64,000 nucleotides of DNA from a virus, in the UHGV virus genome UHGV-0170778. One strand, given 5' to 3'. Made by a program: the position numbers and the translations under genes. Below the pieces are notes generated by a model. That model had not been told where the DNA came from. It saw only the letters and a program-made list of their open reading frames with translations, and searched no databases. Every line of letters begins with the position of its first letter. The first letter of the stretch is position 1. Shown here piece by piece: positions 1,223-60,536 of the stretch.

Positions 1223-2005
1223 ATGTCATTCAAAGCAATCAATCCTGATGCTTTGACGAAGTTTAATTCTGCAATATCTTCAGAGTTTATAAAAATGTAT
1301 GAAGGCTTTGTTTTATCAGACATACAAACTGATAGGATGAAGCCTTCATCTAAATCATTTGCTCCGTCAAGTATTAGATGTATGAGAAAAAGTTGGTTTC
1401 GGTTGAGAGGTAAAGAACCAGATAAGCTGAAATCTGTTGATGCTACATTAGAATTCAAAGCTAAGTTAGGTACAGCTATTCACGAAAATATACAAAGTAC
1501 ACTTTCATCTAATCTAGCAGAGAACTGGGTAGATACAAAGGATTACTTAAATAGTATACAGAATGAATGTAGCTGGCTTAAACAAGCTAAATTTGATGCG
1601 CATGGATTTGAAACTCGAGTTGAACTTTTTGAAATTCCTATCAGATTTAGTGTAGACGGAATTTTGAAACTTCAAAATGAACTATATCTACTAGAAATAA
1701 AAACATTAGATTTTGGGGATTTCAATGGTCTCACAGATATAAAGCAAAGTCATATAGATCAGGTAAAAACATATTTAACTTTATTAAATCTAGAAAATGC
1801 AATCGTTATGTATGTTGACAGACAATATGGATCTGTTAAGTGTTACAGCTATAGCATAAAGCAGTATGAACGAGATGAAATATTCAACAATATGCATCAT
1901 GTACTCAATTGTGTTGAAAGTAATATTGCACCTGACAGATTAGATTATTCTGATTACATGTGTACAAATTGTCCGTACAAGAAAAGTTGTAAGGAGTGGG
2001 GCTAA
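1223..2005 (+). CDS. PD-(D/E)XK nuclease with Cas4/RecB-like Cys cluster
   Basis: 260 aa. LLEIKTL matches the (D/E)xK core. One N-terminal Cys (IRCMRKSW) plus C-terminal CTNCPYKKSC, the pattern seen in Cas4/AddB-type Fe-S nucleases. Stop overlaps the dnaX start (TAATG). Confidence 0.55.
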   Translation: MSFKAINPDALTKFNSAISSEFIKMYEGFVLSDIQTDRMKPSSKSFAPSSIRCMRKSWFRLRGKEPDKLKSVDATLEFKAKLGTAIHENIQSTLSSNLAENWVDTKDYLNSIQNECSWLKQAKFDAHGFETRVELFEIPIRFSVDGILKLQNELYLLEIKTLDFGDFNGLTDIKQSHIDQVKTYLTLLNLENAIVMYVDRQYGSVKCYSYSIKQYERDEIFNNMHHVLNCVESNIAPDRLDYSDYMCTNCPYKKSCKEWG

Positions 2006-4365
2006 TGTCAAATAAACTTTCTTCAAAATCTCTGGCAGTAAAATATAGACCTAAAACATTTGAAGATGTAGTGGAACAGAGTGTAGTTACAGACATACTT
2101 AAAAACATTGCTACAAATTCTGATAATCTTACTCTCCGTAATTTTCTTTTGATTGGGTCTGCTGGAACAGGAAAGACTACTTGTGCAAGAATACTTGCAA
2201 ATGAATTGAATCATGGTGAGGGAGAACCTATTGAAATTGACGCAGCTTCTAACAATGGCGTAGACGCAATGCGAGGTATTGTAGATCAAGCTAAAACTTA
2301 TCCAATTGTAGGTAAGTATAAAGTGTTCATAATTGATGAATGTTTCCATAAAAATACACTTGTTGATACACCATTAGGCAAACGAAGAATTTCTGATATC
2401 AAACAAAATGATTTAGTTTACAATATGACTGGGACTGCTAGTGTTTCAAAGGTTTTGAAAAATAAAGTAAAAACTGATAACCTTGTATTAGTCTATGTTA
2501 ATGGTTCATCTATTTTAACAACAAAGGATCATCTATTCTTTACAAGTGATGGGTGGGTCAAAGCAAAAGATTTAGTTAAAGGTGATGTATTGTATGATAA
2601 CAAAACAATGCGAAGTTTGCGGCAAAATGTTTCAGTCTTATCCAAGCGACAATCGCAAAGCTTGCAGCAAGGAATGTGGGGAAATTCTTCGAGCAAAAAA
2701 CCTACAGAAATTTCTTTCAGAGAGACCAAAAACAGGATATACAAAAAAGTGTCCGATCTGTGGGAAAGTCTTTTATACACCTCAGTCAGTGAATTCGATA
2801 ACTTGTTCAAGCAAATGTTCCTATATTTACAAAAAACAACAAGGAATTTCAAAGAAGCAGACAGATATGTATGCTTCGCACAGGCAGGAATTTATTTGTC
2901 CTGTTTGCGGGAAGCATATGAACATCCGGAAGAGCGATCATCGGAAATATTGTTCAGTAGAATGTTCGGTGAAATCTCATCATATAGCCGAATTGCACCC
3001 AGATACCCAACTGCCCGCGAAGTCTTGTGTGATATGTGGAAATATGTTTATTCCGAAATCAAAACAAACGCAGACTTGCTCAAAGAGCTGCAGATATATT
3101 CTGATTGCTTCCAAAACACGAGGAAAAAAGAATCCAGAAGCGTCTGCACGGATGAAAGCTCACAACCCGATGGAAAATCCCGAAACTTTTGCGAAGATGA
3201 AAGCAACCAAGATGAAGAATGGGACATGGTCAAAGCCTTGTGTGAAGCGTGGCGGAAATGGGCATTTTACCAAGCCGCAGATACATCTTCATCAAGCATT
3301 AGGGAATGGATGGGTCTTAGAATATCCAGTGAAAACACATGTTTCAAAGCAGAACGAGATGCACTATCCTACGAATTACAAACTAGACCTTGCATTGCCG
3401 GAAAAGAAGCTTGGAGTCGAGGTGGATGGGAAAGACCACAATACGAAATCTCAACAGTTATTAGATCAGAAGAAAGTAACTTGCTTGGAGAATTTAGGGT
3501 GGACTGTGTTGAGGTTTTCAAACGAGGAAATAATGAACAACATTTCGAGCGTTATTTCAGTAATTCAGAATTATGTTCAGAAACTGTAGATATGTATGAT
3601 TTACAGATAGCAGGACATCCATCTTATTTCGTTGAAGGCGTTCTGGTTCATAATTGTCATGCCCTTAGTAACAGTTCTTGGCAAGCGTTATTGAAAGTTT
3701 TAGAAGAAGCTCCAGCTGCAAGTGTGTTCATGTTAGCTACAACAAATCCTGAAAAAATACCAGAAACAATTTTATCAAGAGTAATGACATTTCAGTTGTC
3801 TAAGATAAGTTTGTCTGGTATCTTTAATCGACTGAAGTATGTTTTAGATAAAGAAATTGAATCTGGAAGAAATATAAAATATGAAGAAGATGCAGTAAAC
3901 TTCATCGCTAAATTAGGTAATGGAGGTATGCGAGACAGCCTTACATTGCTAGATACAGCACTTTCTTATAGCAACAATATAACAATGGAGAATGTAGAAA
4001 AAAGTCTTAATCTTCCTAATTACAATGACTATTTTTCATTGCTTCAATCTATTGCAAAGAAAGACAACAAATCAATTATTGAAACAATATCTTCTGTTTA
4101 TAATTCAGGAGTTAATTTTGTAAAATGGTTTGAAGGTTTTCATTCATTTGTAATTAACATTGTTAAGTACATTAACATCCAAGATATTAACATGACAATG
4201 ATTCCAAGTACTTACTTAGATAAAATTTCTAAATATGGCCCTGCTCATTGTACAATATGCTTAAAACTGTCTAATATTCTAGTTAAACTTATTCATGAAT
4301 TAAAGTCAACAAACTATCAACAAGAAATGGCTATAACTTACTTATGTTCTGCTAAGAAAGGATAA
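2005..4365 (+). CDS. dnaX: DnaX-like clamp loader ATPase (tau/gamma family), interrupted by an intein
   Basis: KYRPKTFEDVV box, Walker A GSAGTGKTT, Walker B KVFIIDE. After the intein it resumes with CHALSNSSWQALLKVLEE, SRC-like ILSRV and sensor-2 GGMRDSLTLLD. The track start at 1996 is GTG; ATG at 2005 follows AAGGAG. Confidence 0.8.
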   Translation: MSNKLSSKSLAVKYRPKTFEDVVEQSVVTDILKNIATNSDNLTLRNFLLIGSAGTGKTTCARILANELNHGEGEPIEIDAASNNGVDAMRGIVDQAKTYPIVGKYKVFIIDECFHKNTLVDTPLGKRRISDIKQNDLVYNMTGTASVSKVLKNKVKTDNLVLVYVNGSSILTTKDHLFFTSDGWVKAKDLVKGDVLYDNKTMRSLRQNVSVLSKRQSQSLQQGMWGNSSSKKPTEISFRETKNRIYKKVSDLWESLLYTSVSEFDNLFKQMFLYLQKTTRNFKEADRYVCFAQAGIYLSCLREAYEHPEERSSEILFSRMFGEISSYSRIAPRYPTAREVLCDMWKYVYSEIKTNADLLKELQIYSDCFQNTRKKESRSVCTDESSQPDGKSRNFCEDESNQDEEWDMVKALCEAWRKWAFYQAADTSSSSIREWMGLRISSENTCFKAERDALSYELQTRPCIAGKEAWSRGGWERPQYEISTVIRSEESNLLGEFRVDCVEVFKRGNNEQHFERYFSNSELCSETVDMYDLQIAGHPSYFVEGVLVHNCHALSNSSWQALLKVLEEAPAASVFMLATTNPEKIPETILSRVMTFQLSKISLSGIFNRLKYVLDKEIESGRNIKYEEDAVNFIAKLGNGGMRDSLTLLDTALSYSNNITMENVEKSLNLPNYNDYFSLLQSIAKKDNKSIIETISSVYNSGVNFVKWFEGFHSFVINIVKYINIQDINMTMIPSTYLDKISKYGPAHCTICLKLSNILVKLIHELKSTNYQQEMAITYLCSAKKG
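2341..3654 (+). other. Intein (438 codons) inserted after the Walker B DE of DnaX
   Basis: Begins Cys (CFHKNTLVDTPLG, block A) with a TxxH block B (TTKDH). Ends VDMYDLQIAGHPSYFVEGVLVHN followed by the +1 Cys (blocks F/G). Removing it restores IIDE|CHALS, the canonical DnaX DExx box. The middle ~330 codons carry no recognisable LAGLIDADG or HNH motif in frame. Confidence 0.75.
2594..3589 (+). CDS. Zn-ribbon / Vsr(DUF559)-like homing-endonuclease-like gene nested in the +1 frame inside the intein
   Basis: +1 frame relative to dnaX/intein. Four CxxCGK...CSxxC zinc-ribbon modules. C-terminal KLGVEVDGKDHN...ENLGWTVLRF is the Vsr/DUF559-type nuclease signature. Paralogous to ORFs 34242..35939(-) and 36652..38211(+). 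Start uncertain (GTG 2582, ATG 2585 or ATG 2594; AAGGTG upstream). Confidence 0.6.
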   Translation: MITKQCEVCGKMFQSYPSDNRKACSKECGEILRAKNLQKFLSERPKTGYTKKCPICGKVFYTPQSVNSITCSSKCSYIYKKQQGISKKQTDMYASHRQEFICPVCGKHMNIRKSDHRKYCSVECSVKSHHIAELHPDTQLPAKSCVICGNMFIPKSKQTQTCSKSCRYILIASKTRGKKNPEASARMKAHNPMENPETFAKMKATKMKNGTWSKPCVKRGGNGHFTKPQIHLHQALGNGWVLEYPVKTHVSKQNEMHYPTNYKLDLALPEKKLGVEVDGKDHNTKSQQLLDQKKVTCLENLGWTVLRFSNEEIMNNISSVISVIQNYVQKL

Positions 4366-8280: not shown

Positions 8281-9228
8281 ATGGTATATTATTATAGTGG
8301 TGGATTAACTAGAACAATGGCAGATATGTTGAAAAATGTACCTAATTTCGAGCCTATTGCTGTTCTAGTTTCTCAGCTTGATAGAAATTCAATTAAAAAG
8401 ATGTTTGAATATCAAGAAGAAGGTATAGTAAAGAAGCTATTTATTGATAGCGGTGCATATTCCGTACATACAGGAAAAGCTAAAGTAGACATTGATGAGT
8501 ATATTAGCTATGTAAATTCTATTGACGACCATATTGATGCAGTAGCTCAAGTTGATACTATTCCTGGAACATTTGGAAAGCCAAAATCTAAAGAAGATTA
8601 TGAAAACTCTTCTAAGAAATCGTGGGAGAACTTCTTGTATATGTATTACAAGATGAAGTCTCCAGAAAAGCTAATTCCTGTTTTTCATTATGGCGAGTCT
8701 TTTGACACTCTGAGAAATATGTTAGAGTGGAGAGACAAAGACGGAAATAAGCTAACTTATTTAGGTATCTCTCCCGCAAATGATAGTGCGCAGAAAGTTA
8801 AAAATGAATACATGAAAAATGTGTATGATGTTATTGCTGAATCATCTAATCCAAATGTAAGAACACATTTATTTGGAATGACATCATTAGATGCTTTATC
8901 TAAGTATCCTGCATATTCTGCAGACAGTGTATCTCATCGACTTATTGGCGGATACAATAAAATAATGGTACCTGAATTTGGTGTAATTTCACTTTCCAAG
9001 AGAAGTCGTACAACTAAATCTAAATCAAATATGAATTTCTTAGATACAGCAGACGAAATGGCTATTGCAAAATTGAAGAAATATTTAGATTCGTTAAATA
9101 TTACATTAGAGCAATGCGAAGATCATCACGCAGCAAGGTGTGTTGTTACAATGTGTACTATTGCTAAACACCTAAAAGATCATCCGTATCAGCCTACAAA
9201 TGTATGCAAGTCAAAGCGCCTTTTCTAA
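8281..9228 (+). CDS. dpdA: DpdA-like (tRNA-guanine transglycosylase-family) DNA 7-deazaguanine transglycosylase
   Basis: 315 aa. LFIDSGAYS near the N-terminus (DpdA-type DSGAF-like motif as I recall it). HLFGMTSLD TIM-barrel-like motif. C-terminal Cys/His cluster HHAARCVVTMCTIAKH. Directly upstream of a full preQ0/preQ1 biosynthesis operon. Confidence 0.5.
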   Translation: MVYYYSGGLTRTMADMLKNVPNFEPIAVLVSQLDRNSIKKMFEYQEEGIVKKLFIDSGAYSVHTGKAKVDIDEYISYVNSIDDHIDAVAQVDTIPGTFGKPKSKEDYENSSKKSWENFLYMYYKMKSPEKLIPVFHYGESFDTLRNMLEWRDKDGNKLTYLGISPANDSAQKVKNEYMKNVYDVIAESSNPNVRTHLFGMTSLDALSKYPAYSADSVSHRLIGGYNKIMVPEFGVISLSKRSRTTKSKSNMNFLDTADEMAIAKLKKYLDSLNITLEQCEDHHAARCVVTMCTIAKHLKDHPYQPTNVCKSKRLF

Positions 9229-9315
9229 AATCACCTTATATAGGGCAAGAAGTTAATATCTTCCAGTTTTGTAACTACTCTGACAGCCTGGAAGTTAAAT
9301 AATAAAAATAAGGAG

Positions 9316-10068
9316 ATGGTTGTATTGAATAACAATCTAAAGTCAAAAATTAAATCAGAGTGTAGAAATTGGAAGCTGTTGCTACAAGCAGTACCTTCAG
9401 GTGTTATGGCGATGTTCGCTGTATCAGTAATCCTCATGAATTTACTTGCAAATAAGGAAATCAATACAGGATTAAGCTGGTTAGCACTTGATTGTGGAAT
9501 TACTGTTTCGTGGCTCAGCTTTCTTTGTATGGATATGCTAACTAAACGGTTTGGTGCAAAAGCTGCTTTTCAGCTATCTATCACTGCTTGTGCTATCAAT
9601 CTTGTTGTTTGTGGTATTCTTTTTGTAGTATCCAAAATTCCTGGGAACTGGGGAGCATTCTATACATATCAAATTGATGTAGCGAATGAATCACTTAATG
9701 ATACCGTTGGAGGTACATGGTATGTTCTTTTAGGTAGTACTATTGCTTTTGTTTGCTCTTCTTTAACTAATTGTGTTTTGAATGCAGCTGTTGGTAAACT
9801 ATATAGAAAGAATAATTTTCTAGCGTACGCACTTCGTTCTTATAGTTCTACATTGATTGCACAGTTTGTTGATAACTTTATTTTTGCATTGATTGTTAGC
9901 CATACATTCTTTGGATGGAGTATGCTACAATGCGTAACTTGTGCATTTACTGGATGTATTGTAGAATTGATGTGTGAAGTAGTATTCAGTCCTATTGGAT
10001 ACAAAGTATGCAAAAAGTGGGAGTTTGACAATGTAGGATCACTCTATTTGGATATTGTAAATAGATAA
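9316..10068 (+). CDS. YhhQ/QPT-family queuosine-precursor transporter-like membrane protein
   Basis: 250 aa, strongly hydrophobic with several predicted TM helices. Sits inside the deazaguanine cluster. Start may be TTG 9325. Confidence 0.4.
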   Translation: MVVLNNNLKSKIKSECRNWKLLLQAVPSGVMAMFAVSVILMNLLANKEINTGLSWLALDCGITVSWLSFLCMDMLTKRFGAKAAFQLSITACAINLVVCGILFVVSKIPGNWGAFYTYQIDVANESLNDTVGGTWYVLLGSTIAFVCSSLTNCVLNAAVGKLYRKNNFLAYALRSYSSTLIAQFVDNFIFALIVSHTFFGWSMLQCVTCAFTGCIVELMCEVVFSPIGYKVCKKWEFDNVGSLYLDIVNR

Positions 10069-10080
10069 GGAGAATATAAT

Positions 10081-10761
10081 ATGATCAAAGTTGTAGTTAC
10101 AGGTTCTGCAAAAGGTATCGGAAAATCTCTAGTACAGAAAATCGATTTTGAATTATCTCGTCAGCCAGAAGATTATATGATTTACGGTATTGATGTAGAA
10201 AAAAGCAATTTGGATAAATGCTTAAGAAATTACACACACATCATTGCAGATGTGGGTGAAATGTATGAATTGCCTGATATCGAAGATGTAAACTATCTGG
10301 TAAACAATGCAGGTGTACAGAATAGTAAAGATGATATCAGAACTAATTTGATTGGTACTATCAATTGTACAAACAAATATGGTATTCAGCCAAGCATCCG
10401 ATCTATTGTGAATGTGTCTTCTGTAAGTGCACACAATGGAGCAGAATTCCCAGAATATGTAGCAAGTAAAGGCGGTATGCTGTCTTATACAGTTGCAGTT
10501 GCTAAGATGATTGCAAAATTTGGTGCAACTTGTAACAGCATATCTCCGGGTGGAGTAATTACTGATTTGAACAATATCGTTATGAATGATAAAGACAAAT
10601 GGGCTGCAATCATGGAAATGACTCCGCTTAAGAAATGGGCAACAAGAGAAGAAATTGCAGAATGGATTTATTTCATGCTGTTTGTGAATAAAAGTATGAC
10701 TGGACAGGATGTTTTAATTGACAACGGTGAAATGTTCAACCATACTTTCGTTTGGGACTAA
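10081..10761 (+). CDS. short-chain dehydrogenase/reductase (SDR)
   Basis: N-terminal [13 protein letters not shown] (TGxxxGIG), NNAG motif, catalytic YxxxK (YVASK). Confidence 0.65.
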
Positions 10762-10774
10762 TAAGGAGGATAAA

Positions 10775-11278
10775 ATGATCTACAAGGAACAAAAAACAGA
10801 CGGAATTACACTTTTAGGTAATCAGAATACAAAATATAAGTACGATTACGATCCGACTGTTCTAGAAAAATTTGAAAAGAAATTTGAAGATTCAAATGAA
10901 GACGAACAAGTAGTTAGCTTGGATTGTTTTGAGTTTGTGTCAAGATGTCCAATTACAGGTCAGCCGGATTTAGCAACAATTCATATTGCATATATTCCAA
11001 ACAAGTATATGGTAGAATCCAAATCATTGAAATTATACTTGTTCTCATTCCAGCAACATGGAGATTTTCATGAATCTTGTGTTCATATGATCATGCAGGA
11101 TCTTGTAGACTTGATTCATCCTAAGTATCTAGAAATCTATGGGGACTTTAATTCTCGAGGCGGGATTTCAATTCTTCCTTGGAGCTGTTATGCAGATGAA
11201 AATCACAAAGACTTGAAAAAGCAACGTCAGATTCAAGTTATGCAATATAACATGAGTCACAGACCTCGTACTTCTTGA
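10775..11278 (+). CDS. queF: NADPH-dependent 7-cyano-7-deazaguanine reductase QueF
   Basis: [13 protein letters not shown] matches the QueF E(x)3CP(x)TGQPD motif. ATG 10775 follows AAGGAGG; the track start at 10718 is TTG. Confidence 0.8.
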
Positions 11279-11362
11279 TTAACATATAGCATCAGACAGT
11301 GCTGTACACCTAGCTGATGTTAAAATATGAATATTTCAAAAACAGAAAGGAGACATAATATT

Positions 11363-12082
11363 ATGTCTAACAAAACTAATGAAAAAGCAGTTATTCTAAG
11401 TTCTGGAGGAGTTGATTCTACTACTTGCGTAGGTATTGCTGTAGAGCGTTTCGGAAAAGAAAATGTTTGCACAGTTTCAGTCTTCTATAACCAGAAACAT
11501 TCAAAAGAACTTGAATGCGCTCAGAAAGTAGCAAATCATTATGGTGTAGACCATACAGTTATTGATTTGTCAGGTACACATATTTTTGATGATAGCGAGT
11601 GTCCTTTGCTGAAAGGTAGCAATAAAAATATTCGTCATGAAAGTTATGCAGACCAAATTGCTAAAGACGGAGAAGGTATGGTAGAAACATATGTACCATT
11701 TAGAAATGGTCTTATGCTTTCTTCAGTAGCTGCATTTGCAGTTTCAAAGTATCCGGACAGCATTGTACATATTTATCTTGGCGCCCATGCAGATGATGCA
11801 GCTGGAAGTGCTTATGCAGACTGCTCTAAAGAGTTCACAGACGCAATGTACGAAGCTATTTCTATCGGTACTTATGATAAAGTAAAAGTAGAAGCTCCTC
11901 TAGTTAATATGAATAAAGCAGAGGTTGTAAAAACTGGACTTGAGCTTAATGTTCCATACAGATTGACTTGGAGCTGCTATGAAGGCGGTGATGTTCAGTG
12001 CGGTACATGCGGTACTTGTATCGACAGAAAAAATGCATTCAAGGCAAACGGAGTAGAAGATCCAGTTCCATATAAGGAGTAA
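11363..12082 (+). CDS. queC: 7-cyano-7-deazaguanine synthase QueC
   Basis: LSSGGVDSTTC PP-loop. C-terminal CGTCGTC zinc-binding Cys cluster. ATG 11363 follows AAAGGAG. Confidence 0.85.
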   Translation: MSNKTNEKAVILSSGGVDSTTCVGIAVERFGKENVCTVSVFYNQKHSKELECAQKVANHYGVDHTVIDLSGTHIFDDSECPLLKGSNKNIRHESYADQIAKDGEGMVETYVPFRNGLMLSSVAAFAVSKYPDSIVHIYLGAHADDAAGSAYADCSKEFTDAMYEAISIGTYDKVKVEAPLVNMNKAEVVKTGLELNVPYRLTWSCYEGGDVQCGTCGTCIDRKNAFKANGVEDPVPYKE

Positions 12083-12084
12083 AT

Positions 12085-12510
12085 ATGAAAGAATATGTAA
12101 CTTGGGGCAATGTAGAACGATTTGTTTTAGAGCTTGCTGATATTTCAAATAAATGTAATCGTCAATTTGATGGCGTTTACGGCCTACCTAGAGGTGGTCT
12201 TGTTATTGCTGTTATGGTTTCGCATGTACTCGATATTCCTCTTCTATCGGCACCTACTTCTAAGAGCTTGATTGTAGATGATATTTGCGATTCTGGAGAG
12301 TCATTACTTCATTATATCAAGAATACAAGTTCTGAGTACGAAGAAGCAAAAAGACCGTACATTGCAACTATATTTTGGAATGATAATGACTTAGGGATAA
12401 AACCAGATTTCTCTATGTTTAAGAAAAAAGATAGATGGATTGTGTTTCCTTGGGAAAAAGAACAACTACTCGTAGATATAGATGAAACAGAAAGGATTTG
12501 TCATGTATAA
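12085..12510 (+). CDS. Gpt-like (xanthine-guanine) phosphoribosyltransferase
   Basis: 141 aa. YVTWGNV, LPRGGLVIAV, LIVDDICDSGES and WIVFPWE parallel E. coli Gpt YIVTWDM, VSRGGLVPGA, IVIDDLVDTGGT and WIEQPWD. Confidence 0.6.
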   Translation: MKEYVTWGNVERFVLELADISNKCNRQFDGVYGLPRGGLVIAVMVSHVLDIPLLSAPTSKSLIVDDICDSGESLLHYIKNTSSEYEEAKRPYIATIFWNDNDLGIKPDFSMFKKKDRWIVFPWEKEQLLVDIDETERICHV

Positions 12511-12943
12511 ACTTAAAACTCGAATTGATTTTGAAGCAGCGCATAGACTCTATAATGTTAATACATATTCAGAAGAGTGTTCTGATAATCTTCACGGACA
12601 TTCTTATAAAGTTGATGTTGTAGTAGGAAGAGAAACTTTAAACAATGCAGATATGGTAATTGATTTCAAATTGTTGAAAGAGCGTTTACGAAAATGTATT
12701 GTAGATAAATTTGATCATTCATGCATTTTATGCATAGACGACCCTCTTGCAAAATATGTAAATAAATATTGCAAAAAAGTACATATTGTTCCAGAAAGTC
12801 CTACAGCAGAATACATGACAGCTGACTTTGCAGATAGAATTTCTTCTGAATTGATTAAAATAGACCCAGAAGTTGTTGTTCTTTCTGTATCCGTACATGA
12901 AACTGAGAATAATATAGCTACCTGGGAGAAATCTGATAAATGA
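12503..12943 (+). CDS. queD: 6-carboxy-5,6,7,8-tetrahydropterin synthase QueD
   Basis: AAHRL...CxxxHGH (NLHGHSYKVDV) zinc motif. Start ATG 12503 with AAAGGA SD. Confidence 0.8.
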   Translation: MYKLKTRIDFEAAHRLYNVNTYSEECSDNLHGHSYKVDVVVGRETLNNADMVIDFKLLKERLRKCIVDKFDHSCILCIDDPLAKYVNKYCKKVHIVPESPTAEYMTADFADRISSELIKIDPEVVVLSVSVHETENNIATWEKSDK

Positions 12944-13629
12944 AAATAAATGAAATTTTTTATAGCATTGAGGGAGAAGGCATCAGAGCTGGACATCCTT
13001 GTGTATTTATTCGAACATTCGGTTGTAATTTGAATTGTAGTTACTGTGATTCTCAGTATGCTTGCAAAGGTGATAATTACAAAGAGATGTCTATTGTAGA
13101 TATCTTAGATGAGGTAAAAAAGTATAATACTAGATATGTCACGATTACTGGTGGGGAACCATTGATTCAAGATGAAGAAGAAATGTCTTCATTGATTATG
13201 TGCTTGCTATCGTATAATTACTATGTAAATATTGAAACTAATGGTGCTGCAGATCTAGCATATTACAAAGAGATACGATGGAATGAAATTCCTCTCATTT
13301 GTGAAGGACAACTAATATTTACAATGGATTGGAAATCTGATTCTTGTGGTATGAGTAAATTCATGAATAAAGATAATCTGTCTTGTTTGACTGGATGCGA
13401 TGTACTTAAGTTTGTTGTAGGAAGCGAACAAGATCTAATTCAAATGAAAGAGCTATTGCAATCAGATAAATACCTATATAGTCGAGTTAATATATTTGTT
13501 AGCCCTGTATTTGGTGAAATTGATCCTAAATATATAGTTGAGTTTCTTAAACAAAACGGATTAGATAAAGTAAGATTGCAGCTACAGATTCACAAATTTA
13601 TTTGGGACCCGAATGAGCGAGGTGTATAA
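12940..13629 (+). CDS. queE: 7-carboxy-7-deazaguanine synthase QueE (radical SAM)
   Basis: [10 protein letters not shown] radical-SAM cluster loop and TGGEPL motif. Confidence 0.85.
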
Positions 13630-13630
13630 T

Positions 13631-14314
13631 ATGAATAATAAATTAAAAGTAACAACAAAGAAAAACGAGAATGTTACAGCTTCTTGTGCAAATGAAGAAT
13701 ACATGCAATGTATTTATGATGGGAAGCGTCATTTATCTGAGGAAAACTTCAATAAAATCAAAGAAGCAACAAAGATGATACTTGAAGCACTCGGAGAAGA
13801 TGTAAATCGAGAAGGGTTAAGAGAAACTCCTAAACGCGTTGCAAAATATTATGATGAAGTTTTTGAAGGCATTAGATATACTAATGATGAAATTGCTGAA
13901 AAGTTCAATAAATGTTTTGAGGATGTAGAAACAGGAGACCTTGTTGTTGTAGGAGATATTCCTATTTTTAGTTTCTGCGAGCATCATATGGCGCTTATTT
14001 ACAATGCAAAAGTAAGCGTAGGATATATTCCAAACGGCAAAGTAATTGGTCTCAGCAAGATTGCAAGAATTGCAGATATGGTAAGTAAGCGACTTCAGCT
14101 ACAAGAAAGAATTGGGACTGATATTGCTGAAATCTTATCTAAGATACTTGACACAGAAGATATCATTGTTGTTATTGAAGGAGAACATTCTTGTATGACA
14201 GCAAGAGGTGTCAAAAAGCCTGGGACTAGAACTCGGACAAGCGCTATTCGAGGTGCATTTGATTCAGATTCAGACCTTCGTCAAGAGTTCTACAATTTGG
14301 TTTTGTCTAAGTAA
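13631..14314 (+). CDS. folE: GTP cyclohydrolase I FolE
   Basis: FSFCEHHM active-site motif and GLSKIAR motif. ATG 13631 follows GAGGTG. Confidence 0.85.
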
Positions 14315-34241: not shown

Positions 34242-35939
34242 TTATTTTACATATGCATAAACAGCTTGACCACAATCATAAACAGGTAACCATCCGTGAT
34301 CAATCATCAATTCTTCATTTGAGGTTCCTTTTCCGTAATCTGTGTTGAAAAGTTGATCGTATCCTCGTTGACGTAAGAGATTTGCAGTTATTTTATTATT
34401 CTCCAACGACCATATTTCTTGAGGAGGTGTATTCTTAACAAAATGCATACCTAATTTGCTATAAACAGATCCGTCAAATTTAGATAAATCACAATAGGAA
34501 ATTATATTGTTCAGATGATAATGAGAGACGGCGTATTTGAAGAGTTTTGAAGCCCCGCCAGTAATTTTATATCTACTGTTTGAGCAAAGTCGAAGAAGTT
34601 CATATTGATAGTTTCTATTATATCTAGAATTACCAAAAGTCATCACTTCAACAAGTTCTCCTTTATACATCAATCCTACTCGAATATTCTGTCCTTTACA
34701 TGTATTCTGGATATGATACTTACATAAGAATTCGTCGCATTCTTTCTTACCTATCTCTACAATTTTGCAGTTACGGGCATATATAACTTCTTTCTTTGTC
34801 AATAGCTGGATGACTTTGTCCCAGTTATCCCAATCAAAGATATGAATACATCTGAATCCGTTTTCTTTAGCAATATTAGTCTTCTCTAAATGGTAACCTT
34901 TATCTACAGTAACATTCCAATGGTTTCCAACAATGTTGTGAGTATAAGTAGGATCAATTTCTATTAGAATGTTAGTGTCAAGTATGTGTAAGTCGTAAAA
35001 TTTTCCACTTAGATAAAATTCTAACTCTCCGTTTTCATTTGCTGCTTTTACAGCATCTAAAAATTTCAAATTTGTTTTAGATATCCTGTTTTTTCTGCAC
35101 TGAGCGTCATTTGTCAAGCAGCCATAAGGAACTCCGTATTTCTTCATACATGTTTCTTGTATTTTCATTTGAATTGTTTCAGATTTTGAAGGGTTATCTA
35201 CTCCTAAGTGTTCGATCCAAGTCTGCTTTGCTTTTTCGTCTATTTCGTCAGGCCAAAAAGACCCATAGTTCGCTATTCTATGTTCCATAGCTATTTTATT
35301 TATTGATTCCACCTGCATTGGATTTTCTTTTCCATATCGTTCCATCATTGTTTGTTTTGCTTTTTCTGTAAATTGATCTATTTTAGATGGATTAGCTTTG
35401 CCATACTTTGCCTCCATAGTTGCTTTGTATTTATCATATAACTGTTTACTCTGTAAAGTAGTAGGAGCACCGTATCGTTCAGTCATAGTTTTCATTGATT
35501 TTTTCTTTATTTCTGGATCGCTCAATGCCCAGTCAACACCAAATTTCTTCTGGTTAGATGCTTTTGCTTTTTCATAAAATTGATCTGATTGCAAAGCAAA
35601 TTCAACACCATACTTATCTTTCATAGATTTTCTGTGATGAGCTTGAACTTCTTTGTTTTGCATAGGATGATCTACACCATATTTTTCTCTACATCTCATC
35701 TTTCGTAATTGAGCTTTACATTCTTTGGAACACGGAGGAGGCTGTTGTCTTGAATTCCATATCATTTGTTTACCACAAACAGGGCAAGGAACATAATGAT
35801 CGTCATTACATATTTTAGTAGAACTTCTTTCTGGCATAAATATTTTGCCACATATAACACATTTCTTCGGACTCTTTGGAACACCTTTAGGCATATAATA
35901 AATCTCACTTTCAATATTATTATTAAATATAAGGTACAT
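34242..35939 (-). CDS. Zn-ribbon / Vsr-like homing-endonuclease-like protein with extra C-terminal domain
   Basis: The only convincing minus-strand gene in the window. N-terminal CVICGK...CPVCGK zinc ribbons and repeated KYG(V)..P.Q modules. Nuclease core ILIEIDPTYTHN...GFRCIHIFDWD. A ~190-aa C-terminal domain (ARNCKIVEI...YHIQNTCKGQ...LLRLCS) is shared with ORF 36652. Confidence 0.55.
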   Translation of the reverse strand: MYLIFNNNIESEIYYMPKGVPKSPKKCVICGKIFMPERSSTKICNDDHYVPCPVCGKQMIWNSRQQPPPCSKECKAQLRKMRCREKYGVDHPMQNKEVQAHHRKSMKDKYGVEFALQSDQFYEKAKASNQKKFGVDWALSDPEIKKKSMKTMTERYGAPTTLQSKQLYDKYKATMEAKYGKANPSKIDQFTEKAKQTMMERYGKENPMQVESINKIAMEHRIANYGSFWPDEIDEKAKQTWIEHLGVDNPSKSETIQMKIQETCMKKYGVPYGCLTNDAQCRKNRISKTNLKFLDAVKAANENGELEFYLSGKFYDLHILDTNILIEIDPTYTHNIVGNHWNVTVDKGYHLEKTNIAKENGFRCIHIFDWDNWDKVIQLLTKKEVIYARNCKIVEIGKKECDEFLCKYHIQNTCKGQNIRVGLMYKGELVEVMTFGNSRYNRNYQYELLRLCSNSRYKITGGASKLFKYAVSHYHLNNIISYCDLSKFDGSVYSKLGMHFVKNTPPQEIWSLENNKITANLLRQRGYDQLFNTDYGKGTSNEELMIDHGWLPVYDCGQAVYAYVK

Positions 35940-36651: not shown

Positions 36652-38211
36652 ATGATCAAAAAATGTAAGATATGCGGAAAAGAGTTTGAAGCATATGGTA
36701 CTTCTGAATATTGCCCAGGCCCTCACTATAAAAAATGTGCTGTTTGTGGTAAAGAGTTTGAATGGGATAGATTGCATCCTAAGAAATGTTGTTCGAGGAA
36801 ATGTGCAGCAGCTCTTCGACTTTCTACTATATCATCAGAAACAAGAATATGCGAACTTTGTGGGAAAGAATTTCATCCTAATAATAGTACGCAAAAATAC
36901 TGTAAAGATGATCATTACAGACCTTGTCCTGTGTGTGGGAAACCAATTAAAATAACTGAAGACACAAGCATTACTTCTTGTTGTTCTGTTGAATGTAGTA
37001 ATGAGCTTAGAAAGAGGACATGTATTGATAAATATGGAGTTCCTATTGTATCTCAGAATGACGAAATACGACAGAAATTGAGTCAAGCTTCAATAGAATC
37101 AGAAAATAAGAGAAAAGAAACATGTATCAAACGATATGGAGTTGAATTCGCTTCTAAATATTCTGAGGTTAGAAGAAAAATATCGAATACAGTTAAAAGC
37201 AAAGAATGTCAAAGTAGAATTAGAAATACGACACAACACAAGTATGGAGTTCCGTTCGTAATGCAATGCGAAGAAGGATTATCTAGATATAGAAAAACAA
37301 TAGAATCTAAATATGGAGTTCCATATTTTTGTATGACAGATAAATGCAAAGACTCGCAAGGGAAAGTAATTTCGACTCTAAATAAAAGTTTTGGAAACTT
37401 ATTGAGTCAAAATAACATACCATATACATTTGAATACAAGATAGAGAATAGATCGTATGATATTTGCGTCCCTGGATCAAAAACACTGATCGAAATTGAT
37501 CCTACATATACTCATAATGTTATTGGAAATTGTTGGGGACCTGGCTTAGAGATCAATTATCATATAGAGAAGACAAAATTAGCAAATGAATATGGATTCA
37601 GGTGTATTCATATTTGGGATTGGGATGATTGGGATAAGATAATAAATATCATCAGGCCAAAATCCGTCATATATGCTAGAAAATGTAAAATAAGTGTGAT
37701 TGATCGAAAAACAGCAGAATCTTTTGAAATTGATAATCATTTACAAGGCGCTGTAAAAGGACAATCTATTTGCTTAGGTCTATTTTATTGCAATGATCTA
37801 GTACAGGTCATGACTTTCGGTAAACCTAGGTACAATAAAAACTACGATTGGGAACTGCTTAGACTCTGTTCCATTTCTGATTATGCAGTTGTAGGCGGAG
37901 CAGAGAAGCTATGGAAATATTTCATAAGTAGACATGTATCAGATTCAGTTATTTCTTATTGTGATTTGTCTAAATTCAAAGGAGATGTTTACACGAGATT
38001 AGGTATGTCCTTAGACTTTGTAAACGAACCCAATAAAATATGGTCTAAGAAATCTGAAATGATAACCAATAACTTACTCCTTCAACGAGGGTACGATCAA
38101 TTATTCAATACAAATTATGGAAAGGGGACCTCAAACGAAGAATTGATGCTGGAACACGGATGGTTGCCGGTTTATGATTGTGGTCAAGCAAGATATACAT
38201 GGAGTAATTGA
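36652..38211 (+). CDS. Zn-ribbon / Vsr-like homing-endonuclease-like protein with extra C-terminal domain (paralog of 34242..35939)
   Basis: CKICGK, CAVCGK, CELCGK, CPVCGK ribbons. RYGVEFASKYSEVRRK-type repeats. LIEIDPTYTHN...GFRCIHIWDWDDWDKI nuclease core. C-terminal domain collinear with the minus-strand paralog. Confidence 0.55.
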   Translation: MIKKCKICGKEFEAYGTSEYCPGPHYKKCAVCGKEFEWDRLHPKKCCSRKCAAALRLSTISSETRICELCGKEFHPNNSTQKYCKDDHYRPCPVCGKPIKITEDTSITSCCSVECSNELRKRTCIDKYGVPIVSQNDEIRQKLSQASIESENKRKETCIKRYGVEFASKYSEVRRKISNTVKSKECQSRIRNTTQHKYGVPFVMQCEEGLSRYRKTIESKYGVPYFCMTDKCKDSQGKVISTLNKSFGNLLSQNNIPYTFEYKIENRSYDICVPGSKTLIEIDPTYTHNVIGNCWGPGLEINYHIEKTKLANEYGFRCIHIWDWDDWDKIINIIRPKSVIYARKCKISVIDRKTAESFEIDNHLQGAVKGQSICLGLFYCNDLVQVMTFGKPRYNKNYDWELLRLCSISDYAVVGGAEKLWKYFISRHVSDSVISYCDLSKFKGDVYTRLGMSLDFVNEPNKIWSKKSEMITNNLLLQRGYDQLFNTNYGKGTSNEELMLEHGWLPVYDCGQARYTWSN

Positions 38212-39071: not shown

Positions 39072-39089
39072 TTGAAAGGAGTATTACAC

Positions 39090-39902
39090 ATGACTAAAAC
39101 AGAATTGAGAGAGGTACTCGATTTGCATCAGAAATGGCTGAATCTTGAAGACGATGGAGTCAGAGCTAATCTGCATGATTGTGATCTAAGTGGTGCTGAC
39201 TTGCAAGGTGTAGATTTAAGTAGGGCTAACCTGCTGAGAGCAAATCTACACGGAGCTGATTTACGAGGAGCATATTTAGGTGGGTGTAACTTGTATGAAG
39301 CTGATCTCAGTTGCGCAGATATGCAAGGAGCTATCTTTCACAATGCTAACTTTACAGGAGCTAACCTTCGAGAATCAAATCTAAGCGGTTCTGATATGTT
39401 TTTAGCTAACTTGAAGAGAGCAAATTTGCAAAAAGCTAATTTAGTAGAAGCAGACCTATTTCAAGCTAACTTGAAGAGAGCAAATTTGCGTGAATCTGAC
39501 TTGCGTGAAGCTAACCTAGTAGGGGCTGACTTACGGGGAGCAGATTTGCGTAGTGCAAGAAATGTACCTTTCATTCCTCTCATTTGTCCGGAAAAGGGTG
39601 AATTTACTTCTTTCATTAGATGTGGTGACTATATTGTAGAACTTTTGATTCCAGCTGACGCTAAACGGTTTTCTGCAACCACAAGAAGATGCTGGGCAAA
39701 TTATGCTAAAGTTCTGTCAATCACAACATTGTCTGGAGACCCTGTCGAAACGATTAGTGTAACAGATACTGAAGTTTCTCCAAACATTGTATACACAGTC
39801 GGAGAATTTGTATATCCGAATTACTTTAGTGATGACCGGTGGGACGAATATTACGGTGGTATCTATTTTTTCATCAATCGACAAGAAGCTGTAAACCATT
39901 GA
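39090..39902 (+). CDS. pentapeptide-repeat protein (Qnr/MfpA-like fold)
   Basis: About 28 consecutive A(D/N)LxX pentapeptides (ANLHDCDLSGADLQGVDLSRANLLRANLHGADLRGAYLGGCNLYEADLSCADMQGA...), followed by a ~120-aa non-repeat C-terminal domain. ATG 39090 follows AAAGGAG. Confidence 0.8.
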   Translation: MTKTELREVLDLHQKWLNLEDDGVRANLHDCDLSGADLQGVDLSRANLLRANLHGADLRGAYLGGCNLYEADLSCADMQGAIFHNANFTGANLRESNLSGSDMFLANLKRANLQKANLVEADLFQANLKRANLRESDLREANLVGADLRGADLRSARNVPFIPLICPEKGEFTSFIRCGDYIVELLIPADAKRFSATTRRCWANYAKVLSITTLSGDPVETISVTDTEVSPNIVYTVGEFVYPNYFSDDRWDEYYGGIYFFINRQEAVNH

Positions 39903-52789: not shown

Positions 52790-54394
52790 ATGGGAAAGTA
52801 TAGATCACCATTTGGAAGAAAAGTTAGAGTATCAACACCATTTCATAAACCTGGTAGCTGGGCTGCTGGGTTTCATACTGGTGTGGATCTTGTGCCGATA
52901 GATGGATCCAAACATCCTCCGTTGTACGCGATAGCTAATTGTACTATACTCAATTCGTCTGGTGGAAGTTCTTATGGAAATCATATCATAGCAAGAACAA
53001 CAGACAATCGTGTTTTCTTAATGGCACATATGCGAGACAAACCGCTTGTTAAACCTGGACAAAAAGTGTATGCAGGACAACAAGTAGGGTACATGGGCAA
53101 TACTGGTAACTCTTTTGGTGAGCATTTACATATTGAAGTAGAAACATCAACTAAATGGGCATACAACTCTCATTTAGTTAATCCATTAGATTACATAGAT
53201 ATAAATAAATTTTCTAATTCAGGTTGCTCTTCAACTTCTATAATCGATACTTTCATAAAAGAAGCTGAATCGCACAAAGGACAACAAGGCGATTGGGTTT
53301 GGAAACGAATGGGTCGTCCTGTAGGAGAAGCATGGTGTGCTTCTTTTATATGTGCGTGTGCGGATAAAGTAGGAAAACTATTAAACTATGTAATATACAA
53401 CAGTCCCTCTGTTCGTAGAATGGTAACAGAAGGGCAGAAGAAGAAATATGGGAAGTACTTAAAAGGACCTATGTATGGAAATTCTCCTACACCTCAAAAA
53501 GGAGACTTGATTACATTTGATGAAGGGTTCAATACTTCTGGATATGATCACATAGGGATAGTAATCAAAGTATCTAAATCTAGAGTATTCACAATTGAAG
53601 GTAATGTAGGTGGAAGAGGTAGTAGATACAATCATGTTGACTATAGAGATTATTCAAGAACAAACAAGATGATATCTGGGTACTATCGTCCGGATTGGTC
53701 TAAGGTAGACGAATCATATACAACAGAGGAAGATGAATCTGTTGTAGAGCTCGCTCCTTTGTATGATCATCTAAATGATAGAAATGATATGACACTTAGA
53801 GAGGTAGGGTACATATATAACAACCAACCTTCTATAAAACAAAGTAATGTAGGGCTTGTTGTTATAAATTATACAGATATGCTTTACAACATTTTTGAAG
53901 TTGTAGCAAGACAAGGTACACAGAATAACAATAATCCACAGTACAGCACAGCAAGTTTATCTGCAGGTCCAAAAAATACAATAAATTTCTTAGTTGACAA
54001 AGGATTGAATACAGCAGCAGCTGTTGGAATAGCAGCAAATATAAAACACGAAAGTAGTTTCAATACAGCGTCAATAGGTGATAATGGAACATCTTTTGGA
54101 ATATGTCAGTGGCATCTAGATCGTGGGGATAACATGAAAAAGATGGCTGGCAAGAATTGGAAAACAAATTTAACAGGTCAATTAAATTATTTATGGTATG
54201 AATTAACAAATAGCTACAAATATTCTGTACTTAGTCCTTTGCGTTCTGTTTCTAATACATTATCAGGAGCTAAAAAAGCAGCAGATATATTTGTACGACA
54301 TTTTGAAGTTCCTGCAAACATAGACTATCAGTCAGAGCAAAGACAGAAGACTGCAACAAAATATTGGGGCAAATTGAAACAATATCTACAGTAA
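52790..54394 (+). CDS. tail-associated multidomain peptidoglycan hydrolase (M23 peptidase + CHAP-like + lytic-transglycosylase-like)
   Basis: M23: GFHTGVDL (HxGxD) and GEHLHIEV (HxH). CHAP-like Cys/His: GEAWCASFICAC...DHIGIVIKV. Transglycosylase-like: HESSFNTASIGDNGTSFGICQWH (ES..N...G.SFG..Q). Confidence 0.7.
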   Translation: MGKYRSPFGRKVRVSTPFHKPGSWAAGFHTGVDLVPIDGSKHPPLYAIANCTILNSSGGSSYGNHIIARTTDNRVFLMAHMRDKPLVKPGQKVYAGQQVGYMGNTGNSFGEHLHIEVETSTKWAYNSHLVNPLDYIDINKFSNSGCSSTSIIDTFIKEAESHKGQQGDWVWKRMGRPVGEAWCASFICACADKVGKLLNYVIYNSPSVRRMVTEGQKKKYGKYLKGPMYGNSPTPQKGDLITFDEGFNTSGYDHIGIVIKVSKSRVFTIEGNVGGRGSRYNHVDYRDYSRTNKMISGYYRPDWSKVDESYTTEEDESVVELAPLYDHLNDRNDMTLREVGYIYNNQPSIKQSNVGLVVINYTDMLYNIFEVVARQGTQNNNNPQYSTASLSAGPKNTINFLVDKGLNTAAAVGIAANIKHESSFNTASIGDNGTSFGICQWHLDRGDNMKKMAGKNWKTNLTGQLNYLWYELTNSYKYSVLSPLRSVSNTLSGAKKAADIFVRHFEVPANIDYQSEQRQKTATKYWGKLKQYLQ

Positions 54395-59173: not shown

Positions 59174-59413
59174 ATGAACAATACAGGTCAGAAACATAAG
59201 AAATATGTTTTCAATATTTATCAATATGGTAGATTGATTGATACATTAGTGTTCAATGATTTTGGTGCAGCAAAACAATACTATTATAGAACATGGGCTC
59301 ATTATGATGTAGCTACTGTACCAATAGTAGATGGAAAAGAGCTAACTCTAACAGAAGCTGATAGATTATTTGAATACGCTAGATATTTATGGGAGTATAA
59401 AAGTGTCCAATAG
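59174..59413 (+). CDS. hypothetical protein
   Basis: 79 aa. Confidence 0.3.
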   Translation: MNNTGQKHKKYVFNIYQYGRLIDTLVFNDFGAAKQYYYRTWAHYDVATVPIVDGKELTLTEADRLFEYARYLWEYKSVQ

Positions 59414-60536
59414 TTTAACACCTAACAAAAATTTAGGTATCAAACACAATGTAACATTTAGAGTAATAGATGAACGAACTGGAAATGTTGTTCAAACATA
59501 TCAAGGGCATAATTCAGCAACAAACTCATTGTTGTATGGAATAGCTCATTATCTAAAAGGTGATGGAGTTCTTAATCAAGGTGCTCATATGCTAAGTTCA
59601 TTTGTTCCTAGATATATAAGTTTAGGCACAATGGGACTTTCTAGTCAAGAAGAAGACGAAAATCATTTGCCTGTAGGTATTGGTGGTACCCCTAATCCAG
59701 ATGACCCAAATGATGAAGAAAACAGATTTGTTAATTACATGTCACATAGACCTGGATACGGTGCTGACGGATATGACATAAATCTAAATAATGGTCGAGA
59801 TGTTTTTGGATTAGGTAAACCGTTTTCAAAAACTGATAATGTAATATCTGGTACAACAGAAACATTGAAACTAGGAGATATAAACAACGATGGAGTAGTA
59901 GATGTGAATGATCTGCTTCTTCTAGTTGATTATATGTGTGATAAAGTAACATTATCTGAAAAACAATTGAAATGTGCAGACATTGATAAGGACGGACATA
60001 TTGATTGTGAAGATGTTCAATTGCTTCGCCAAGCTATTGATAATAAAACAGATCTAGGTACAATTGAATATACAAACACAACTTATCAAACAATAAATTG
60101 TGAGTTGATATCTAATTCATTTCCTCGTCAGCTCATTTCGTATAGAGAAATAATACCAGAAACAAAAGCAGAACAGCCTCAAACAATTGATGTTGTATAC
60201 AGTGCAATGATATCAACAGGGGCACTATCACAATTCAGAGATCCTGGTAAAGATTATATATTTATAACAGAAGCAGGTTTATGGTCAAGTGATGAATATA
60301 CTGATGGTGCAGATAACGGACTTTTAGCTGGATATCGGCTTGTTCCTACAAATGATAACTATTGGGATATGACCGAACCGTCAAATAGAATGCAGCTTAA
60401 GCGTTCAATCCTGAGAGTAGGAATAAATCAAGTAGTTCAAGTTATTTGGAAAATACAAATAGGGTCAATTGATGATATACTTGATTACTATCATGTAAAT
60501 ACAATATCTGATACAGGAAGTGAAACAGATGTATAA
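59403..60536 (+). CDS. structural/fibre-like protein with internal type-I dockerin-like module
   Basis: GDINNDGVVDVNDLLLLVDYMCDK followed by CADIDKDGHIDCEDVQLLRQAID. These are two ~22-residue segments, each with a Ca-loop DxNxDGxVD and a DLLLL-type helix, as in cellulosomal dockerins. Probable GTG start at 59403 (GGGAG SD); the track start 59370 is TTG. Confidence 0.55.
   Translation: MSNSLTPNKNLGIKHNVTFRVIDERTGNVVQTYQGHNSATNSLLYGIAHYLKGDGVLNQGAHMLSSFVPRYISLGTMGLSSQEEDENHLPVGIGGTPNPDDPNDEENRFVNYMSHRPGYGADGYDINLNNGRDVFGLGKPFSKTDNVISGTTETLKLGDINNDGVVDVNDLLLLVDYMCDKVTLSEKQLKCADIDKDGHIDCEDVQLLRQAIDNKTDLGTIEYTNTTYQTINCELISNSFPRQLISYREIIPETKAEQPQTIDVVYSAMISTGALSQFRDPGKDYIFITEAGLWSSDEYTDGADNGLLAGYRLVPTNDNYWDMTEPSNRMQLKRSILRVGINQVVQVIWKIQIGSIDDILDYYHVNTISDTGSETDV

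Follow-up and report, generated by a model that had tools for sequence, protein, structure and literature searches.

Between positions 8281 and 14314, a 64,000-nucleotide stretch of the viral genome UHGV-0170778 (hereafter the window) carries nine plus-strand open reading frames (ORFs), from the start of a DpdA-like ORF at 8281 to the end of a FolE ORF at 14314. They probably make up a phage-encoded, DpdA-dependent 7-deazaguanine modification system, a member of the Dp-1/phiSM class whose accessory genes are unusual, in which the DpdA would mediate insertion of a preQ1-type base (7-aminomethyl-7-deazaguanine) into the phage DNA. A preQ1-type prediction is the standard reading for this gene set and, the system being of a known kind, would not surprise a specialist; the system would add one more phage that swaps guanine for a 7-deazaguanine against restriction and bring large, myovirus-like phages from Clostridia of the gut or rumen into the group. 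New with respect to the literature searched are a conserved module that pairs a YhhQ-family transporter with an SDR (short-chain dehydrogenase/reductase), and a small purine phosphoribosyltransferase (PRTase) that comes close to being a core gene of 7-deazaguanine clusters in phages.

The gene at 8281..9228 (+; 315 amino acids) encodes a DNA guanine transglycosylase of the DpdA type, to which members named DpdA1 come closest, with DpdA2 representatives lying outside the direct comparison. The initial annotation of the window had placed a protein related to the tRNA-guanine transglycosylases (TGTs) and to DpdA at this position and had made its case depend on such similarity, which is indeed present. 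The ORF matches phrog_887, a family of phage 'queuine tRNA-ribosyltransferase'/DpdA proteins, at 1.2e-44, and tblastn with its product found 164 phage records, the best being Bacillus phage Flasso (38%), Streptococcus phage Dp-1 gp7 (43.5%), MS1 and Cellulophaga phage phiSM, whose DpdA1 is 34% identical over 220 amino acids; DpdAs of the CAjan/Seurat group are ∼25% identical. Modified DNA has been measured in Dp-1, phiSM and CAjan (PMC6884629, PMC10516641). Since the ORF gave no match in Pfam, NCBIfam (E≤0.01) or PADLOC, or to PDB sequences when used singly or as a 35-sequence profile, it took fold comparison to place it in the TGT family. An AlphaFold2 model built with 35 homologues (pLDDT 91.2, pTM 0.88) has a TGT fold, and the top 50 Foldseek matches to it in the PDB are all bacterial, archaeal or eukaryotic TGT or arcTGT structures (E 8e-9 to 1e-6, probability 1.0).

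Residues D56 (in FIDSGA), D92, H136, H196 and D215 (in SADS) are invariant in the 35 close homologues as well as among eight diverse phage DpdAs, including those of Dp-1, Flasso, phiSM, VpKK5 and PaMx25. In the Salmonella DpdA, Asp95 serves as general acid/base, Asp130 and His181 in base recognition and Asp256 as nucleophile (PMC10164549); mapped by motif rather than by structural superposition, D56, D92, H136 or H196, and D215 are their putative counterparts. No cysteine is invariant in the family alignment, and thus the zinc site of TGTs (CxCxxC...H) is absent. Identity as a bacterial TGT (bTGT) was rejected for this ORF on the same ground and because PF01702 and TIGR00430 gave no match. In the bacterial Dpd restriction-modification island (DpdA/DpdB/DpdC; PMC10164549) the DNA transglycosylase likewise has the TGT fold and shares the histidine and all three catalytic aspartates, but the preQ0 that it inserts is a low-frequency mark of self and not a phage counter-defence. 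PADLOC matched neither the DpdA nor the SDR or PRTase of the window, and recognised QueC only as a generic QueC/QatC; the phiSM ParB-like protein, used as a DpdB-type probe, had no homologue in the window, DpdC-K not having been specifically searched for.

The enzyme that sets the expected product apart is QueF (10775..11278, +), a unimodular NADPH-dependent preQ0 reductase that scores 129.7 bits with TIGR03139 (cutoff 86.9) and 171 bits against Bacillus subtilis QueF (4F8B). The ORF opens at TTG 10718; since B. subtilis QueF aligns with it from residue 4 onward of the version starting at ATG 10775, this ATG is the likely start. The protein keeps the thioimide-forming catalytic cysteine within RCPITGQPD, the motif by which the initial annotation had recognised it, together with the NADPH motif ESKSLKLY and HGDFHE. 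A true QueF is distinguished by the catalytic cysteine and an E(S/L)K(S/A)hK(L/Y)(Y/F/W) NADPH motif (PMC10516641), and on these features the window protein is a nitrile reductase and not a QueF-L amidinotransferase. About 490 stretches in IMG/VR encode a QueF.

The preQ0 pathway is fully co-encoded, with Pfam and NCBIfam scores above or near the curated cutoffs. FolE, GTP cyclohydrolase I (13613..14314, +), reaches 224.9 bits with PF01227 and 236 bits with NF006826 (cutoff 162). QueD, 6-carboxytetrahydropterin synthase (12482..12943, +, with an alternative start at ATG 12503), matches PF01242 (92.5 bits) and phrog_2389 (2.3e-28), and at 72.8 bits stays below the 89.25 cutoff of TIGR03367. QueE, a radical-SAM 7-carboxy-7-deazaguanine synthase of the Clostridial type (12940..13629, +), matches PF04055 and falls slightly short of the TIGR03963 cutoff (242 against 260 bits); its CxxxCxxC motif is nonetheless present (CNLNCSYC). 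QueC, preQ0 synthase (11327..12082, +), scores 189 bits with PF06508 and 172 bits with TIGR00364 (cutoff 150.3). Downstream of dpdA lies the gene for a YhhQ/COG1738 (Vut_1) transporter (9316..10068, +; PF02592, 81.2 bits), predicted to import 7-deazaguanine precursors, whose match to the 'queuosine precursor transporter' model TIGR00697 (1.1e-9) is below the model cutoff. Across the cluster the hidden Markov model (HMM) and PHROG E-values are far beyond chance. Curated HMMs thus back six of the seven assignments made initially (FolE, QueD, QueE, QueC, QueF and the YhhQ-like protein), and all seven stand; overlooked were the SDR and PRTase genes, which bring the interval to nine. Neighbouring genes are mostly separated by 2 to 87 nucleotides, and three pairs overlap by 4 to 29. 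Scans of the window for promoters and terminators returned counts not above those in shuffles. When the nucleotide sequence of the cluster was compared with 50,697 phage records in a search set for distant similarity, only short matches of 67–73% were obtained; the window phage has no close sequenced isolate.

In the mechanism that we propose, FolE, QueD, QueE and QueC would convert GTP to the free base preQ0, which QueF would reduce with NADPH to preQ1; the DpdA1-like transglycosylase would then exchange guanines of the double-stranded phage DNA for preQ1 after replication, and the resulting 2'-deoxy-preQ1 (dPreQ1) would block host restriction enzymes. Taken with the gene identities, TGT fold, conserved catalytic residues and genomic associations observed here, the characterised relatives suggest DNA as the target, preQ1 as the inserted base and an anti-restriction role. 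The nearest precedent is Dp-1, whose gp1–gp7 are QueF, QueC, QueD, QueE, FolE, QueT and DpdA (PMC6884629), that is, five biosynthetic genes, a transporter and a DpdA, all co-directional as in the window. In addition to the DpdA identity given above, the two systems share QueF (53% identical), QueC (46%) and FolE (41%), and the predicted product is the same: Dp-1 DNA contains 3,389 dPreQ1 per 10^6 nucleotides, ∼1.7% of G, with dG+ and dPreQ0 not detectable (PMC6884629). The argument from QueF to a preQ1-type modification, already drawn in the initial annotation, agrees with this measurement on the same core gene set. The systems differ in that the window has a YhhQ/Vut_1 transporter instead of QueT, places DpdA first and includes an SDR and a PRTase that are absent from the Dp-1 cluster; moreover, Dp-1 is a 56-kb pneumococcal siphovirus, whereas the window derives from a myovirus-like phage of ∼110–150 kb from gut or rumen metagenomes. 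Cellulophaga phage phiSM, with dPreQ1 and mdPreQ1 in its DNA (PMC10516641), also combines a DpdA1-type transglycosylase, QueF and the preQ0 pathway. The phiSM and VH7D QueFs complement an Escherichia coli queF deletion, which the HVTV-1 QueF did not, and the VH7D DpdA2 inserts preQ1 in preference to preQ0 (PMC10516641).

Several points count against this proposal. The phiSM DpdA1, a relative of the window DpdA, was inactive in E. coli (PMC10516641), so that the case for preQ1 insertion by a DpdA1 is indirect; acceptance of preQ1 by the window DpdA is suggested by analogy with one system, its closest characterised relative Dp-1. Likewise, that QueF would act before and not after insertion is argued from two of three phage QueFs complementing E. 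coli, and not from the window QueF itself. The window covers about half of a genome of ∼110–150 kb, and a modifier of the DpdM or DpdN type could lie outside it. Finally, a sister contig (L012), whose DpdA is 82% identical, encodes between YhhQ and the SDR a 258-amino acid CxxCxxCC protein (9192–9968) that matches phiSM DpdM at 1e-4 by blastp.

The last two points bear on whether dPreQ1 is the final base in the virion or is further modified, to mdPreQ1 or fdPreQ1 by an enzyme encoded outside the window or to a new derivative made with the SDR. The initial annotation had allowed for further modification; the window itself shows no DpdM or DpdN homologue for it, though the sister phage has a DpdM-like gene. 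Of the 34 viral loci with the SDR, 7 contain a DpdM-like gene and 2 contain DpdA3 together with DpdN. On the other hand, searching the 64-kb window by tblastn with DpdM of phiSM, the DpdM-like protein of L012 and DpdN of Flavobacterium phage immuto_2-6A gave nothing better than E ∼1, and neither a DpdA3 nor a ParB-like homologue was found there, although phiSM has DpdM and a ParB-like gene beside dpdA. In addition, Dp-1 with the same core genes stops at dPreQ1 (PMC6884629), and bacteria have YhhQ–SDR pairs where there is no DpdA, an argument for a free base rather than DNA as the substrate of the SDR. Further modification is therefore unlikely for the window phage. The DpdM-like CxxCxxCC protein was observed in L012, L108, L110, L114, L118 and L130–L132, sometimes between YhhQ and the SDR, and phages with this protein may carry mdPreQ1.

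It is less probable still that DpdA inserts preQ0, with QueF reducing it on the DNA or with dPreQ0 remaining the main base. The DpdAs first tested, and every DpdA1 tested so far, inserted preQ0 (PMC10516641). Furthermore, the closest relatives of the window PRTase (43–57% identical) belong to DpdA-QueC-PRT-QueD-QueE-FolE cassettes without QueF; the window cluster therefore reads as such a cassette with a YhhQ-SDR-QueF module added after DpdA, and its ancestor was probably of the preQ0 type. Similarly, the DpdA1 systems of Enterobacteria phage 9g, Escherichia phage CAjan and the Queuovirinae (dG+, dPreQ0) resemble the window in DpdA1 and the preQ0 pathway, but they have no QueF, their QueC or Gat-QueC gives dPreQ0 or dG+, and their DpdA has only the low identity noted above. 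Against insertion of preQ0, the window QueF keeps all features of a free-base NADPH reductase and has no QueF-L character, phage QueFs reduce preQ0 in vivo as the free base and preQ1 is the base preferred by VH7D DpdA2 (PMC10516641), and dPreQ1, not dPreQ0, was detected in Dp-1 DNA (PMC6884629).

The first of the two genes overlooked initially, at 10081..10761 (+) between YhhQ and QueF, encodes a classical SDR of a distinct subfamily, with PF13561 and PF00106 scores above their cutoffs. It shows the motifs TGxxxGIG (TGxxxGxG) and NNAG and the N-S-Y-K tetrad, in which residue 89, S114, Y126 and K130 do not vary among 19 sequences. Also invariant is Asp38, at the end of beta2; as an Asp in this position indicates NAD(H) by the SDR coenzyme rule, the sequence suggests NAD(H) as the coenzyme. 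More than 120 homologues (54–99% identity) were found, many on contigs of 100–185 kb, and proteins nearly identical (98–99%) to the window DpdA and SDR are encoded on metagenome contigs in ENA and Logan that reach 58 kb.

The association of this SDR with YhhQ was assessed in bacteria with one genome per species, using the 80 best loci (L016–L095), nearly all from metagenome-assembled genomes of gut or rumen Clostridia. The SDR gene lies directly downstream of a YhhQ homologue in 76 of the 80 by tblastn, and in a 77th behind a divergent Vut_1 protein recognised by Pfam; in the three exceptions the upstream gene encodes a BioY-family protein (L077), an NMT1-type ABC transporter (L095) or another SDR. 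All-against-all clustering of the neighbours in these loci revealed no third conserved partner. Of 34 IMG/VR loci with the SDR, 27 have YhhQ next to it and 23 have DpdA, DpdA3 or que genes within 8 kb; these viral loci include rearranged gene orders, an inserted DpdM-like gene and minimal DpdA-YhhQ-SDR clusters. YhhQ thus accompanies the SDR in no fewer than 77 of the bacterial species sampled and in dozens of modification clusters of phages, and that the SDR is kept through rearrangement speaks for a function linked with the transporter and the supply of 7-deazaguanine.

YhhQ would bring in extracellular 7-deazaguanine precursors, and we tentatively suggest that the SDR processes the imported compound into a usable substrate, a salvage role that is chemically plausible. 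The favoured chemistry, which is speculative, would be an NAD+-dependent oxidation of queuine or queuosine at the cyclopentenediol of queuine, followed by a beta-elimination that frees preQ1. In bacteria, the pair presumably serves salvage for queuosine (Q) in tRNA; known bacterial routes of queuosine-precursor salvage (YhhQ/COG1738, QueT/QrtT; QueK/QueL) share the YhhQ-family importer, but no SDR figures in the salvage routes of the searched literature, whereas the pair is chromosomal in 77 of the 80 sampled Clostridia species. That literature ties no SDR to YhhQ, 7-deazaguanines or any described salvage route, though an earlier mention is possible. Some observations speak against the proposed role. 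Relatives of the SDR in the PDB, searched by profile, are generic (FabG or dehydrogenases), Rfam scans disclosed no preQ1 or other riboswitch before the pair in the window, four phage loci and 11 bacterial loci, nor elsewhere in the window, and given the BioY-family and NMT1-type contexts the link of the SDR to Q precursors is drawn mainly from the phage contexts. A role as a pterin reductase feeding QueD was considered and dropped, the PDB profile showing no specific affinity to pteridine or sepiapterin reductases.

The second accessory gene, between QueC and QueD (12085..12510, +), encodes a small type-I purine PRTase of 141 amino acids resembling Gpt and archaeal 6-oxopurine PRTs. It scores 31.5 bits with PF00156 (cutoff 26.3) and 2.5e-9 with the xanthine PRT model PRK09177, and its best PDB matches are small archaeal purine PRTs, namely 1VDM of Pyrococcus horikoshii (1e-12) and GpT-2 of Sulfolobus solfataricus. 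Invariant in the family are the pyrophosphate loop PRGG (RGG), the phosphoribosyl pyrophosphate (PRPP) loop VDDICDSGES (DDxxDxG) and a C-terminal WxVxPWE. A relative is encoded in 442 IMG/VR stretches, and in the best 80 of these (L221–L300) genes within 5 kb of the PRTase gene were counted. FolE is present in 66 of the 80, in 49 of them within 400 nucleotides, QueE in 62, QueD in 57 and QueC in 44; DpdA3 is found in 30, of which eight also have DpdN, and a DpdA1-like gene in 12. The homologue in immuto_2-6A lies directly upstream of folE, and Cellulophaga phage phiST also carries one. In Vibrio phage VpKK5 the PRTase forms the N-terminal domain of gp32, a 300-amino acid 'FolE' (L098, 4917–5819), and in Pseudomonas phage PaMx25 it occupies the same open frame as folE (L004, 5950–6792), the annotated gp38 being in another frame; this 'hypothetical protein' was probably called in the wrong frame, and the start of folE would then lie further upstream. 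The Queuovirinae phages PaMx25 and VpKK5, the latter without a genus placement, thus share the small PRT domain of the window. Neither Hutinet 2019 (PMC6884629) nor Cui 2023 (PMC10516641) mentions the gene.

Because FolE uses up GTP and each exchange by DpdA sets one guanine free, we favour salvage of guanine to GMP as the function of the PRTase, a role for which we see an even chance. The enzyme would join the guanine expelled by DpdA to PRPP, and the formation of GMP would both remove a product of the reversible exchange and refill the GTP pool on which FolE draws. In two phage loci, L120 (8677–9147) and L105 (8723–9217), the SDR gene is followed directly by a gene for a guanine-deaminase-like protein of the CDA fold, for which B. 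subtilis GuaD (1WKQ, 4.5e-33) is the top match in the PDB; it may get rid of the guanine that DpdA sets free and would then be a second, independent guanine-consuming enzyme of these clusters. In the searched literature neither a PRTase nor a guanine deaminase is linked to DpdA systems, an earlier mention being possible. Weighing against guanine recycling, the PRTase could act instead on 7-deazaguanine bases.

If so, the modification might be at least partly pre-replicative, with the PRTase making a 7-deazaguanine nucleotide that is then reduced, phosphorylated and incorporated by the polymerase. PRTase-type precedents exist in deazapurine antibiotic pathways (ToyH, TubC), and the window family is enriched with DpdA3 in the counts above. 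It also occurs in phiST and immuto_2-6A, in which 100% of G is replaced, and complete replacement would be easier via nucleotide pools; the replacement of all guanine has been linked to the DpdA3 subfamily (PMC10516641). However, a DpdA is still encoded in every such locus, and it is FolE, at the step that consumes GTP, to which the PRT domain is fused or adjacent, rather than the final step of the biosynthesis. In relatives a guanine deaminase replaces the PRTase. In hypoxanthine-guanine phosphoribosyltransferases an Asp contacts the purine N7, and this Asp is invariant in the PRTase family. Cui et al. argue for post-replicative insertion (PMC10516641). We accordingly regard incorporation via nucleotides as improbable, marginally more so than insertion of preQ0. 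The immuto_2-6A system itself has the full FolE-to-QueF pathway and a PRTase 34% identical to that of the window, but its DpdA3 is not detectably similar to the window DpdA and its formyltransferase DpdN is absent from the window.

A role of the cluster in queuosine modification of host or phage tRNA, as a control of translation, would fit the way in which the Dp-1 genes were historically annotated (queuosine biosynthesis, tRNA modification) and the presumed tRNA-Q salvage by the bacterial YhhQ–SDR pair, but it is very improbable, since the transglycosylase groups with phage DNA-modifying DpdAs and not with bTGT (no match to PF01702 or the TIGR TGT models, no conserved Zn-Cys motif), the 64-kb window contains no tRNA genes, queA, queG and queH were not detected among its scanned ORFs, and Dp-1 DNA is demonstrably modified (PMC6884629).

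With post-replicative DNA modification as the preferred reading, the two accessory roles can be combined: the YhhQ-coupled SDR would provide a new NAD-dependent salvage step, and a dedicated PRTase, or in some phages a guanine deaminase, would recycle or remove the guanine expelled by DpdA. Jointly this remains doubtful, if possible. Were it true, the SDR would make preQ1 from queuine or queuosine for TGT in gut Clostridia and for DpdA in phages, as an alternative to the radical-SAM queuine lyase, and DNA hypermodification would run as a closed cycle from guanine through GTP to 7-deazaguanine, driving the reversible exchange forward. The proposed roles would then supply a missing piece of the gut microbiome's salvage of queuosine precursors and explain sustained high-level replacement of guanine.

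The cluster lies between a replication module (sliding clamp, intein-containing clamp loader, UvsX-like recombinase and small clamp-loader subunits) and the structural genes (terminase, portal, tail sheath and a T4-like prohead protease) of a myovirus-like phage, whose IMG/VR relatives are contigs of 108–149 kb. In these relatives DpdA always follows the clamp-loader genes, and the accessory content is variable. At the DpdA site, L005, L006 and L008 have DpdA alone, L007 has QueF-DpdA-HNH-QueC, L009 has QueF-DpdA-QueC-YhhQ-SDR, and the full gene set is found in the window and L012. The 'DpdA-only' phages carry YhhQ–SDR elsewhere on the same contig, in two of three (L101, L103) together with QueF-QueC-QueD-QueE-FolE and in L105 alone.

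Other genes of the window give hints about the host. A protein encoded at 59370–60536 (+) contains a type I dockerin domain (PF00404, 3.9e-10), which hints at a cellulosome-producing host, e.g. Ruminococcus or other fibrolytic Clostridia, consistent with the rumen and gut homologues of the SDR. The product of 52790–54394 (+) is a three-domain cell-wall hydrolase (Peptidase_M23, CHAP and phage tail lysozyme), probably a tail-associated lysin, and points to a Gram-positive host. The large clamp-loader subunit (1996–4365, +; 789 amino acids) has an insertion of ∼430 amino acids between its AAA and delta-prime domains (PF14890 Intein_splicing, Hint) that looks like an intein, and the L012 orthologue of 345 amino acids is without it. 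The sole large minus-strand gene (34242–35939) encodes an HNH/homing-endonuclease-like protein with DUF7487 and lies at a local inversion of GC and AT skew; a second DUF7487 protein is encoded just downstream of it (36652–38211, +). Finally, the gene at 39072–39902 (+) encodes a pentapeptide-repeat protein (PF00805, 2.3e-44) with a C-terminal DUF5758, which may be a DNA mimic.

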